The position numbers and the translations under genes were made by a program. Positions 49,839 through 54,344 of a stretch of 64,000 nucleotides of DNA are shown piece by piece. The stretch's first letter is position 1, and each line of letters begins with the position of its first letter. The notes beneath the pieces were generated by a model, which was not told the origin of the DNA, did no database searches, and worked only from the letters and a program-made list of their open reading frames with translations. The stretch lies in assembly GCF_055900595.2 (NCBI RefSeq), contig NZ_CM148325.1; one strand, 5' to 3'.

Positions 49839-50354
49839 TTAGAAGCGGTAACCAACACCGGCAATCCAGGTGCCTACGTCAACGCTACGAATACGGCTCT
49901 GCTCGTAAGAGAAGTCCAGAGCAACGTTTTCCATCGGGTTAAACTGCAGACCTGCACCGTAGGAGAAACCGTAGTCGCTGGTGTCGTGTTTGTAGGTCGG
50001 GTATTCAGTGGTCTGGAATTTACCATAACCCACACCCACTACACCATAGATGCTTGCCCAGTCGTTAATGCGGTAAGCCGGACCAGCAGTGATGCCGTAG
50101 TACTGGTTTTTGTTGTAGTCACCAGAGCTTGCAGTACGGCTTTTCTCGGTGTAAGTGAAAGAACCGATCACACCCAGCGGGCTGTTGTCTTCTTCATAGC
50201 GGTATTTCAGGTTGAAACCGCCCATTTTGTTCATTTGGCCCTGAGCGTCGCTCTGTGCGTAACCGCCAGTTACGGTAGAAGTCGCAGCTACGGAAGTACC
50301 TGCGGTGAAAGCCAGAACTGCGGCCAGTGCTGAAAGACATGCAATTTTTTTCAT
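49839..50354 (-). CDS. ompX: outer membrane protein X
   Basis: 171 aa from ATG at 50354; signal peptide, 8-strand beta-barrel pattern ending in F. Confidence 0.95.
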   Translation of the reverse strand: MKKIACLSALAAVLAFTAGTSVAATSTVTGGYAQSDAQGQMNKMGGFNLKYRYEEDNSPLGVIGSFTYTEKSRTASSGDYNKNQYYGITAGPAYRINDWASIYGVVGVGYGKFQTTEYPTYKHDTSDYGFSYGAGLQFNPMENVALDFSYEQSRIRSVDVGTWIAGVGYRF

Positions 50355-50706
50355 AACCACCTCAAATGTGATTCAAATAAGTCCTAAGTTTTAAATATAT
50401 CAAAAATTAATGGGAAACTCTTCGCGATTTGTGATGTCTAACGGGCCATTTCATGTAACAGAACGTTTCCATAAACCGCTATCCATCTAAAATTAAATCA
50501 CTTTTTCAGAGAACTGCATAAGTATTACGCATGTTTTCCCTGTCATTCATCCAGATTATTCCTAATCACCAGACTAATGATTCCATCAATCCTGGCGCAT
50601 TTTAGTCAAAACGGGGGAAAATTTTTTCAACAAATGCTCAACCAGCATTGGGTATATCCAGTACACTCCACGCTTTACTTAGGTTTAGATATTTGTGGGA
50701 GAAAGG

Positions 50707-51594
50707 ATGCCTGGTTCATTACGTAAAATGCTGGTCTGGTTACCAATAGTCATATTGCTCGTTGCCATGGCGTCTATTCAGGGTGGAGCCTCGTTAGCTA
50801 AGTCACTTTTTCCTCTGGTGGGCGCACCGGGTGTCACTGCGCTGCGTCTGGCATTAGGAACGCTGATCCTCATCGCGTTCTTTAAGCCATGGCGACTGCG
50901 CTTTGCCAAAGAGCAGCGGTTACCGCTGTTGTTTTACGGCGTTTCGCTGGGTGGGATGAATTATCTTTTTTATCTTTCTATTCAGACAGTACCGCTGGGT
51001 ATTGCGGTGGCGCTGGAGTTCACCGGACCACTGGCGGTGGCGCTGTTCTCTTCTCGTCGCCCGGTAGATTTCATCTGGGTTGTGCTGGCGGTTCTTGGTC
51101 TGTGGTTCCTGCTACCGCTGGGGCAAGACGTTTCCCATGTCGATTTAACCGGCTGTGCGCTGGCACTGGGAGCAGGGGCTTGTTGGGCTATTTACATTTT
51201 AAGTGGGCAACGCGCAGGAGCGGAACATGGCCCTGCGACGGTGGCAATTGGTTCGTTGATTGCAGCGTTAATTTTCGTGCCAATTGGAGCGCTTCAGGCT
51301 GGTGAAGCACTCTGGCACTGGTCGGTTATTCCATTGGGTCTGGCGGTCGCTATTCTCTCGACCGCTCTGCCTTATTCGCTGGAAATGATTGCCCTCACCC
51401 GTTTGCCAACGCGGACATTTGGTACGCTGATGAGCATGGAACCGGCGCTGGCTGCCGTTTCCGGGATGATTTTCCTCGGAGAAACATTGACACCCATACA
51501 GCTGCTGGCGCTCGGCGCTATCATCGCCGCTTCAATGGGTTCTACGCTGACAGTACGCAAAGAGAGCAAAATAAAAGAATTAGACATTAATTAA
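50707..51594 (+). CDS. rhtA: threonine/homoserine exporter RhtA (YbiF)
   Basis: 295 aa from ATG at 50707 (MPGSLRKMLVWL...), DMT/EamA family. Confidence 0.92.
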   Translation: MPGSLRKMLVWLPIVILLVAMASIQGGASLAKSLFPLVGAPGVTALRLALGTLILIAFFKPWRLRFAKEQRLPLLFYGVSLGGMNYLFYLSIQTVPLGIAVALEFTGPLAVALFSSRRPVDFIWVVLAVLGLWFLLPLGQDVSHVDLTGCALALGAGACWAIYILSGQRAGAEHGPATVAIGSLIAALIFVPIGALQAGEALWHWSVIPLGLAVAILSTALPYSLEMIALTRLPTRTFGTLMSMEPALAAVSGMIFLGETLTPIQLLALGAIIAASMGSTLTVRKESKIKELDIN

Positions 51595-51602
51595 ATTTAC
51601 AT

Positions 51603-51632
51603 TTCTGCATGGTTATGCATAACCATGCAGAA
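51603..51632. repeat. perfect 30-bp inverted repeat (likely rhtA terminator hairpin or protein site)
   Basis: TTCTGCATGGTTATG/CATAACCATGCAGAA, perfectly self-complementary, 9 bp after rhtA stop. Confidence 0.6.
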
Positions 51633-51748
51633 TTTCTCGCTACTTTTCCTCCACACCGTCTTTATATATCGAATTATGCAAAAGCATATTTATTCCGAAA
51701 ATTCCTGGCGAGCCAATAAATAAGAATTGTTCTTATCAATATATCTAA

Positions 51749-52396
<648 letters not shown>

Positions 52397-52436
52397 ATCC
52401 ATCGCTGATGGTGGAGAACTTTAGTACCCGATAAAA

Positions 52437-52467
52437 GCGGCTTCCTGACAGGAGGCCGTTTTGTTTT
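52437..52467 (+). terminator. rho-independent terminator of dps
   Basis: stem GCGGCTTCCTG/CAGGAGGCCG followed by TTTTGTTTT. Confidence 0.75.
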
Positions 52468-52626
52468 GCAGCCCACCTCAACGCACTTATTTAGTGCATC
52501 CATCTGCTATCTCCAGCTGATTAAGTAAATTTTTTGTATCCACATCATCACACAATCGTTACATAAAGATTGTTTTTTCATCAGGTTTTACGCTAAATAA
52601 TCACTGTGTTGAGTGCACAATTTTAG

Positions 52627-52657
52627 CGCACCAGTTTGGTGCCCCAGAATGGTGCAT
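52627..52657. promoter_or_regulatory. tandem NtrC binding sites of the glnH promoter
   Basis: GCACCAGTTTGGTGC and CCCCAGAATGGTGCA match TGCACCA-N3-TGGTGCA. Confidence 0.7.
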
Positions 52658-52729
52658 CTTCAGGGTATTGCCCTATAAATCGTGCATTACGTTTTTGCCG
52701 CATCTCGATAAATCAATGAGTTGCAAAAC

Positions 52730-52745
52730 TGGCACGATTTTTTCA
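52730..52745 (+). promoter_or_regulatory. sigma54 promoter glnHp2 (-24/-12)
   Basis: TGGCACGATTTTTTCA, about 55 bp upstream of glnH ATG, downstream of the NtrC sites. Confidence 0.7.
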
Positions 52746-52784
52746 TATATGTGAATGTCACGCAGGGGATCGTCCCGTGGATAG

Positions 52785-53546
<762 letters not shown>

Positions 53547-53560
53547 TAATGCTACGCCTG

Positions 53561-53630
53561 TAAAGCGCACTGGCAGTTCCCTCTCCCCTCTGGGGAGAGG
53601 ATTAGGGTGAGGGGCGCAAACCCGCTCCGG
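53561..53630. repeat. GC-rich intergenic repeat (BoxC-like) between glnH and glnP
   Basis: CCCTCTCCCCTCTGGGGAGAGG...AGGGTGAGGGGCGCAAACCCGCTCCGGGGCC, self-complementary; resembles E. coli BoxC from memory. Confidence 0.5.
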
Positions 53631-53684: not shown

Positions 53685-54344
53685 ATGCAGTTTGACTGGA
53701 GTGCCATCTGGCCTGCCATTCCGCTTCTGATTGAAGGTGCCAAAATGACCCTGTGGATTTCGGTCCTCGGTCTAGCTGGCGGCCTGGTGATCGGATTGCT
53801 GGCAGGTTTTGCACGCACCTTCGGTGGTTGGATATCCAACCACGTCGCGCTGGTCTTTATTGAAGTGATCCGCGGCACACCTATCGTCGTCCAGGTGATG
53901 TTTATCTACTTCGCCCTGCCGATGGCGTTTAACGACTTACGCATCGACCCATTTACTGCGGCGGTGGTCACCATCATGATCAACTCCGGCGCATACATTG
54001 CGGAAATCACGCGTGGTGCGGTGCTGTCTATCCACAAAGGTTTCCGTGAAGCAGGACTGGCTCTCGGCCTTTCACGTTGGGAAACCATTCGCTACGTCAT
54101 TTTACCGCTGGCACTGCGCCGTATGCTGCCGCCGCTGGGTAACCAGTGGATCATCAGCATTAAAGATACCTCGCTGTTTATTGTTATCGGCGTGGCGGAA
54201 CTGACCCGTCAGGGGCAAGAAATTATTGCCGGTAACTTCCGCGCCCTTGAGATCTGGAGCGCCGTGGCGGTGTTCTATCTGATTATTACCCTGGTGCTGA
54301 GCTTTATTCTGCGTCGTCTGGAAAGAAGGATGAAAATCCTGTGA
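53685..54344 (+). CDS. glnP: glutamine ABC transporter permease GlnP
   Basis: 219 aa permease. Confidence 0.94.

Follow-up and report, generated by a model that had tools for sequence, protein, structure and literature searches.

Rho-dependent transcripts in Escherichia coli display steady-state 3′ ends just past stable stem-loops that lack a U-tract, with an excess of C over G and rut sites directly downstream, and PNPase and RNase II trim such transcripts back to the stem-loop (Dar & Sorek 2018, PMC6061677). Two other kinds of element are closely related in form: canonical intrinsic terminators, such as that of dps, in which the hairpin is followed by a U-tract of 7–8 nt, and the REP/BIME palindromes, extragenic mRNA 3′ stabilizers that can block 3′-5′ exonucleases. 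Upstream of the dps promoter, a "30 bp inverted repeat" has furthermore been treated as a DNA structural feature for Dps (Melekhov 2015; Antipov 2017, PLoS One 12:e0182800), and a structural or Dps-contacting role that tunes the topology and activity of this promoter was proposed in the later of the two studies (PMC5553809).

The element analyzed here lies between rhtA and dps in a stretch of 64,000 nt (contig NZ_CM148325.1 of RefSeq assembly GCF_055900595.2; hereafter the window), which belongs to E. coli, as 5421 of 5426 complete genomes of this species contain a match, at 95–100% identity, to a 501-bp segment around the site. The genes in the window include ompX (− strand), rhtA, dps, and glnH (all + strand), and the RefSeq annotation of the two genes flanking the element agrees with the names rhtA and dps that they had been given from the sequence alone. 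The features needed for the following are:

50707–51594, + strand: rhtA coding sequence, 295 a.a., threonine/homoserine exporter, with the stop codon TAA at 51592–51594
51603–51632, + strand: 30-bp palindrome, the proposed rhtA mRNA 3′ stem-loop (sequence, fold, conserved hairpin, covariation, sense-strand G·U bias)
51633–51710, + strand: pyrimidine-rich tract of 78 nt with more C (20) than G (9), a candidate rut-like region
51841–51846, + strand: TATACT, read from the sequence as the dps promoter −10 hexamer, given for context and outside the hairpin
51893–52396, + strand: dps coding sequence, the co-directional downstream gene (RefSeq annotation)
~52434–52469: dps terminator hairpin, a GC-rich stem followed by TTTTGTTTTG

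The rhtA element resembles the class described by Dar and Sorek (2018, NAR 46:6797), and the hypothesis of Peters et al., in that a stable stem-loop without a U-rich tract stands right after the coding sequence, with no conspicuous A-run before the hairpin (judged by eye), an excess of C over G in the adjoining downstream tract, and a folding energy in the range of intrinsic terminators. It differs from that class in its unusually long stem, which in Escherichia continues into a loop-free DNA palindrome. With canonical intrinsic terminators, the dps terminator among them, it shares a sense-strand hairpin of similar stability just past the stop codon and, in E. coli, three U directly after the stem, but its tail is unconserved and holds no U-tract of 7–8 nt, its stem is AT-rich, and no consensus terminator is called. 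With the REP/BIME elements it has in common an extragenic, palindromic form and a place downstream of a gene, where it may block 3′-5′ exonucleases; unlike them, it is single-copy, locus-specific, and without the REP consensus. Finally, it is the very repeat discussed in the Dps literature. The palindrome sits about 221–250 bp upstream of the dps start site, as placed from the TATACT hexamer, and given that this span (approximately −250 to −221) falls within the region 216–281 bp upstream of the dps promoter described by Antipov 2017, we identify it with the 30-bp repeat of that work. Unlike in the treatment given there and by Melekhov 2015, however, the comparative evidence set out below points to selection on the rhtA-sense RNA.

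The original prediction of a perfect, self-complementary 30-bp palindrome starting 9 bp past the rhtA stop was borne out in every detail. Positions 51603–51632 (TTCTGCATGGTTATGCATAACCATGCAGAA) form two arms of 15 nt that are 100% complementary with zero spacer, and the first of them begins at +9 from the TAA codon, with 8 nt between. Zero-spacer palindromes with arms of this length are expected by chance ~6 × 10⁻⁵ times per 64-kb window and ~0.004 times per 4.6-Mb genome, and none of 100 shuffles of the sequence matched it; the palindrome is far beyond chance. Folded as RNA, either strand gives a stem of 13 bp and a loop of 4 nt (UGCA) at −18.7 kcal/mol (z = −6.5 for the rhtA-sense strand), with a stem G+C content of only ~40%. 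A permissive Rfam scan of 50300–52900 found no relevant family at the palindrome, the only match there being a chance one to a microRNA (E = 0.94). In the same scan of the region, the dps terminator hairpin (52434–52469) gave a sub-threshold match to ctRNA_p42d (26.9 bits against a gathering score of 50), which is probably a generic resemblance among terminators.

Several smaller symmetric sequences were noted in the window. Arms of 8 nt or more occur in just one further palindrome, which spans 20 bp within glnP: GTGGTTGGATATCCAACCAC at 53824–53843, also perfect and without spacer, has arms of 10 nt (~0.05 expected per window by shuffling) and lies in the open reading frame 53685–54344, which we took as glnP. 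At 51674–51687, TTATGCAAAAGCAT partly repeats the palindrome core TTATGCATAACCAT at 86% identity, short two-copy matches of this kind often being due to chance, and also forms a small inverted repeat of its own (ATGC-AAAA-GCAT). At 51720–51736, ~117–133 bp before the inferred dps start site, stands ATAAGAA-TTG-TTCTTAT, a perfect inverted repeat of 7-3-7 layout that presumably resembles an RcsB-type box.

Within E. coli, the element is nearly universal and occurs once. The 30-mer is present in 5420 of the 5426 complete genomes, with 5407 records matching at 99% identity or better, and the median of two places per genome corresponds to the two strands of one palindromic locus. The rhtA-dps spacer of the window is identical to that of K-12 MG1655 across the palindrome, whose K-12 position we computed as ~849172–849201. 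A search of the window at up to 3 mismatches revealed no second copy, and the 30-mer was found in no phages and in no true plasmids, the six apparent plasmid matches being chromosome-like records of 0.7–4.9 Mb. Repeat elements are common between the genes of E. coli, and a G-rich, repeat-like element does lie downstream of glnH in this same window, so that a member or remnant of a dispersed family (REP/BIME-like or a miniature transposon), or else a functionless chance palindrome, had to be considered. Membership of a dispersed repeat family, which the original prediction had named as grounds for dropping it, is contradicted by the single locus per genome and by the lack of further copies in the window, phages, and true plasmids; chance is contradicted by the expectation of 6 × 10⁻⁵ per window, and both are contradicted by the retention of the structure at the orthologous position across the Enterobacteriaceae. 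Copy number, chance expectation, and cross-species conservation together essentially refute either origin. The G-rich element downstream of glnH is itself palindromic (53575–53620, CCCTCTCCCCTCTGGGGAGAGGATTAGGGTGAGGGG), and Term-seq places a strong 3′ end (847200, minus strand) in its K-12 equivalent.

For comparison across the Enterobacteriaceae, a scan with Dps using one genome per species yielded 80 loci, to which K-12 and the best-matching E. coli were added for a total of 82; rhtA lies directly upstream of dps in 79 of them. We folded the 90 nt past each rhtA stop codon and extracted the main hairpin, with a cut-off of at least 8 bp. Such a hairpin is present in 71 of the 79 rhtA-dps loci and starts at a median of 9 nt past the rhtA stop. 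An additional search with RhtA for loci lacking the dps neighbor returned close Enterobacteriaceae relatives only. Enterobacterial-type dps genes also appeared under two unrelated genera, Marinobacter sp. BW6 (a 703-bp contig, L007) and Streptomyces polyasparticus (a 573-bp contig, L077); both occur on very small contigs of low coverage, share 92–97% identity with E. coli Dps, and are probably assembly contamination.

From genus to genus, compensatory changes have altered the sequence of the stem. Among the loci compared, the loop-free perfect palindrome is confined to Escherichia, in which E. albertii (~1209–1240 of its locus) carries a double substitution (C>T and G>A, giving TTTTGCA/TGCAAAA) that results in a perfect 32-bp palindrome, and another E. 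coli lineage (L004, ~1208–1241) carries one flanking substitution that results in a perfect 34-bp palindrome. Outside Escherichia, the center consists of 3–13 unpaired nucleotides with unrelated loop sequences. The version found in Citrobacter sedlakii (TTCTGCATGGTT-TGCATAACCATGCAGAA) is one nucleotide shorter and forms a 12-bp stem with a 5-nt loop, its center (GGTT-TGCATAACC) showing a single-nucleotide difference from Escherichia. In Salmonella, other Citrobacter, Enterobacter, and Lelliottia, the outer stem TTCTGCATG/CATGCAGAA is kept around unrelated loops of 4–9 nt; Kosakonia and Phytobacter use TTCAGCATG/CATGCTGAA, Raoultella uses TGCACG/CGTGCA, and the stems that Buttiauxella, Cedecea, and Klebsiella carry at this position are unrelated. 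One inserted nucleotide separates the loop-free perfection seen in Escherichia from the version of C. sedlakii, and any function of this perfection as such is hypothetical.

Covariation was assessed on a plain MAFFT alignment of the 46 alignable species, which was not fitted to the structure and onto which the E. coli structure was imposed. Standard pairs occupy 85.7% of the cells, compared to 30–43% when the 3′ partners are slid by 1–3 columns, changes on both sides were seen in 15 of the 16 pairs, and none of 500 column shuffles reached the observed values of pairing or covariation. The species share ancestry, and these counts therefore overstate the number of independent events; nonetheless, stem families that are visibly different show the pattern again. 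Compensatory substitutions and tolerance of G·U on the transcribed strand thus coincide here, as in a conserved structured RNA. The stem core (TTCTGCATG...CATGCAGAA) is better conserved than its flanks across several genera, which may leave room for some sequence-specific recognition or a binding partner, stems also being slow to evolve.

Eight species yielded no called hairpin, of which seven are truly without a strong one, as L075 still folds the 9-bp outer stem. In Pseudocitrobacter (L015 and L017), the rhtA-dps spacer is shortened to 115 nt and the rhtA 3′ hairpin is absent. The spacer is likewise shortened and the hairpin absent in Trabulsiella (L047, L061, and L070), where the dps promoter sequence GGTGCTATACTTA stands ~70–85 nt past the rhtA stop. 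Klebsiella indica has no hairpin, and K. grimontii only one of 7 bp. Given these seven species, Pseudocitrobacter and Trabulsiella included, the hairpin is dispensable in some lineages, and the loci of the two latter genera are natural deletions of the element.

Whether the conserved symmetry serves RNA or DNA can be read from the mismatches it tolerates. A duplex DNA structure or a symmetric protein site is expected to treat G·T and A·C alike, while for an RNA with a single direction of transcription G·U is tolerable on that strand only. In the 63 unique hairpins, the sense fold contains 54 G·U pairs and the antisense fold 9, and the G·U count favors the sense strand in 36 hairpins and the antisense strand in 3. 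Correspondingly, the rhtA-sense RNA is the more stable of the two in 48 species and the less stable in 11, with 12 ties. Measured from its center, the hairpin is 23.5 ± 2.5 nt away from the rhtA stop and 268 ± 24 nt away from the dps start codon. Given the strand bias and a position fixed to the rhtA stop, the element belongs to the rhtA transcript and not to the control region of dps, and the pattern points to selection acting on the structure of the transcribed rhtA-sense RNA.

These data bear on the reading of the palindrome as a DNA-level element, either an operator bound by some dimeric regulator or else a structural site or cruciform through which Dps or other nucleoid proteins tune the dps promoter. 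In Escherichia, the perfect, spacerless symmetry with an AT-rich center favors cruciform extrusion and symmetric binding, and the perfection is kept in the 32-bp version of E. albertii and the 34-bp version of the other E. coli lineage. In addition, the 30-bp inverted repeat lies in the middle of the Dps contact region reported by Antipov 2017, and activity of the dps promoter was lower in a dps-null strain (PMC5553809). The comparative data argue against such a role as a conserved function: the center is 3–13 nt of unpaired sequence outside Escherichia, the half-sites differ, G·T is tolerated where A·C is not (54 versus 9), an asymmetry predicted neither by duplex structure nor by symmetric protein recognition, and the position tracks the rhtA stop rather than dps. 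The in vitro footprints also leave the palindrome itself uncovered. Melekhov 2015 described only "several protected bands", ~113 and ~175 bp from the primer dps_F1 (PLoS One 10:e0126504), which, with the primer mapped to 51464, we computed to fall at ~51577 and ~51639, on both sides of the palindrome and not over it, and a fragment lacking the palindrome (F2-R2) bound Dps better. The sole reported contacts are non-specific, in vitro contacts with Dps that flank the repeat (Antipov 2017; Melekhov 2015).

The literature yielded little else at the DNA level. An exact-sequence search with the 24-nt core returned no papers, and we found no report of a regulator, SELEX, or ChIP-exo signal at the palindrome. 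The palindrome is not known to fit the consensus sites of GntR-type regulators, NarL/NarP (7-2-7), MqsA, MntR, Fur, and others. As for the dimeric-protein site that the original prediction had drawn from the loop-free perfection, a center varying from 0 to 13 unpaired nucleotides, half-sites replaced in several genera, and spacing that is not conserved speak against it, the loop-free center being found only in Escherichia. The evidence for a specific role at the DNA level is thin, and we consider such a role improbable. Less probable still is a compound history, in which the ancestral rhtA hairpin gained one nucleotide in Escherichia and the resulting 30–34 bp palindrome took on a second role as a cruciform extruded under negative supercoiling or as a Dps contact, coupling the state of the nucleoid to the activity of the dps promoter ~240 bp downstream, in line with the speculation of Antipov et al.; were it true, one sequence would serve both as the RNA 3′ end signal of rhtA and as a topological regulator for dps.

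The sequence downstream of the hairpin was then compared with the two modes of termination. In E. coli, the stem is followed by TTTCTCGCTACTTTT, with three U directly after the stem and U at 5 of the first 9 positions, and this tail (UUUCUCGCUA) holds no U-tract of 7–8 nt. The weakness of the U-tract noted in the original prediction was confirmed by a provisional T-score of 2.99 and by a simple consensus terminator scan, which made no call at the palindrome. In the tails of the 71 species, U averages 3.1 per 10 nt, a background level with no enrichment, and even within Escherichia the tails vary (TTTCTCGC, ATTCCGTT, and TATTACAC) while the stem stays. The 78 nt 3′ of the hairpin have a C/G ratio of 2.2, at the 98th percentile of 78-nt windows in the stretch analyzed. 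Over the 50 nt past the hairpin, C averages 24.5% and G 11.1%, with C exceeding G in 66 species versus 4, so that the downstream C-over-G excess of the Dar and Sorek class is present. Since a weaker C-over-G skew also holds over the rest of the spacer (57 species versus 3), the rut-like signal is not specific to this tract.

Published 3′ ends were searched at the corresponding K-12 positions. Adams 2021, with curated Term-seq ends from three conditions, lists none at 849160–849179, and none on the minus strand from 848852 to the next listed end (850273, plus strand), and the list of Rho-termination regions from the same work has no entry in the rhtA-dps spacer. Among the ends in the same set are a strong one at the dps terminator (848340) and two that fall inside dps. 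This absence is a weak negative, as the lists are thresholded and rhtA may be too poorly expressed. The TERMITe supplements hold no rhtA 3′ end or Rho entry, and a literature search for rhtA together with bicyclomycin or ProQ/Hfq found nothing on the palindrome site.

What is observed at this locus is thus a conserved, covarying, sense-strand-selected hairpin that is anchored to the rhtA stop, has no conserved U-tract, and is followed by a tract richer in C than in G. Given that this arrangement matches the class of Dar and Sorek, we favor a stem-loop that defines the 3′ end and blocks exonucleases, and consider it reasonably likely that the palindrome acts as an RNA hairpin defining or protecting the 3′ end of the rhtA mRNA, with Rho-dependent termination in the spacer. 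Once transcribed, the palindrome would be the final structured element in the rhtA mRNA and would fold, 9 nt past the stop codon, into a stable stem-loop that defines and protects the mature 3′ end, the stem-loop of the class being in place and the hairpin the presumptive end of the transcript. RNA polymerase would run on into the C-rich, G-poor untranslated tract, where Rho would probably load and terminate transcription before or within the upstream region of dps, after which PNPase and RNase II, acting 3′ to 5′, would trim the transcript back to the hairpin. The short UUUCUC tail in E. coli may add some intrinsic termination, and either mode of termination would keep rhtA transcription out of the regulated dps promoter. 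The involvement of Rho, the trimming by exonucleases, and the insulation of dps are inferences.

The main rival to a Rho-dependent, trimmed 3′ end is a weak but true Rho-independent terminator, in which the hairpin and its UUUCUC tail would release RNA polymerase without Rho. The stable hairpin (−18.7 kcal/mol) directly after the stop codon would suit such a terminator, as would the three U right after the stem and the 5 U among the first 9 tail nucleotides in E. coli, and structures of this kind are seen by Dar and Sorek as possible transition states between both modes of termination (PMC6061677). We nevertheless judge it unlikely, as the simple terminator scan gives no call, the provisional T-score is 2.99, the dps terminator tail (TTTTGTTTTGC) is visibly more U-rich, the stem is only ~40% G+C, the U-tract varies even among Escherichia species in which the hairpin is kept, and the thresholded list of Adams 2021 reports no Term-seq 3′ end. 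The suggestion that a hairpin terminates rhtA and insulates dps thus divides into two parts: as to structure, a hairpin immediately 3′ of rhtA is upheld by its presence in 71 of 79 loci, the compensatory changes, and the sense-strand G·U wobbles, whereas its action as a terminator is doubtful, considering the weak U-tract, the lack of conservation of that tract within Escherichia, and one Term-seq list without a 3′ end at the site.

Taken as a conserved 3′ stem-loop of the rhtA mRNA, the palindrome is a real feature that appears, on comparative grounds, to be an ordinary one of a well-described kind, and its sequence has already been remarked on in the Dps literature. A perfect, loop-free palindrome can evidently be the lineage-specific state of an ordinary 3′ stem-loop, and the comparison of related genera, together with strand-specific G·U counts, can separate an RNA from a DNA reading without experiment. 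Caution is accordingly warranted with the 30-bp repeat cited as a structural DNA target of Dps, which bears the evolutionary signature of an RNA hairpin. The finding has little significance beyond annotation: rhtA gains a defined 3′ boundary element, one that suggests how its transcription may stay out of the tightly regulated dps promoter.
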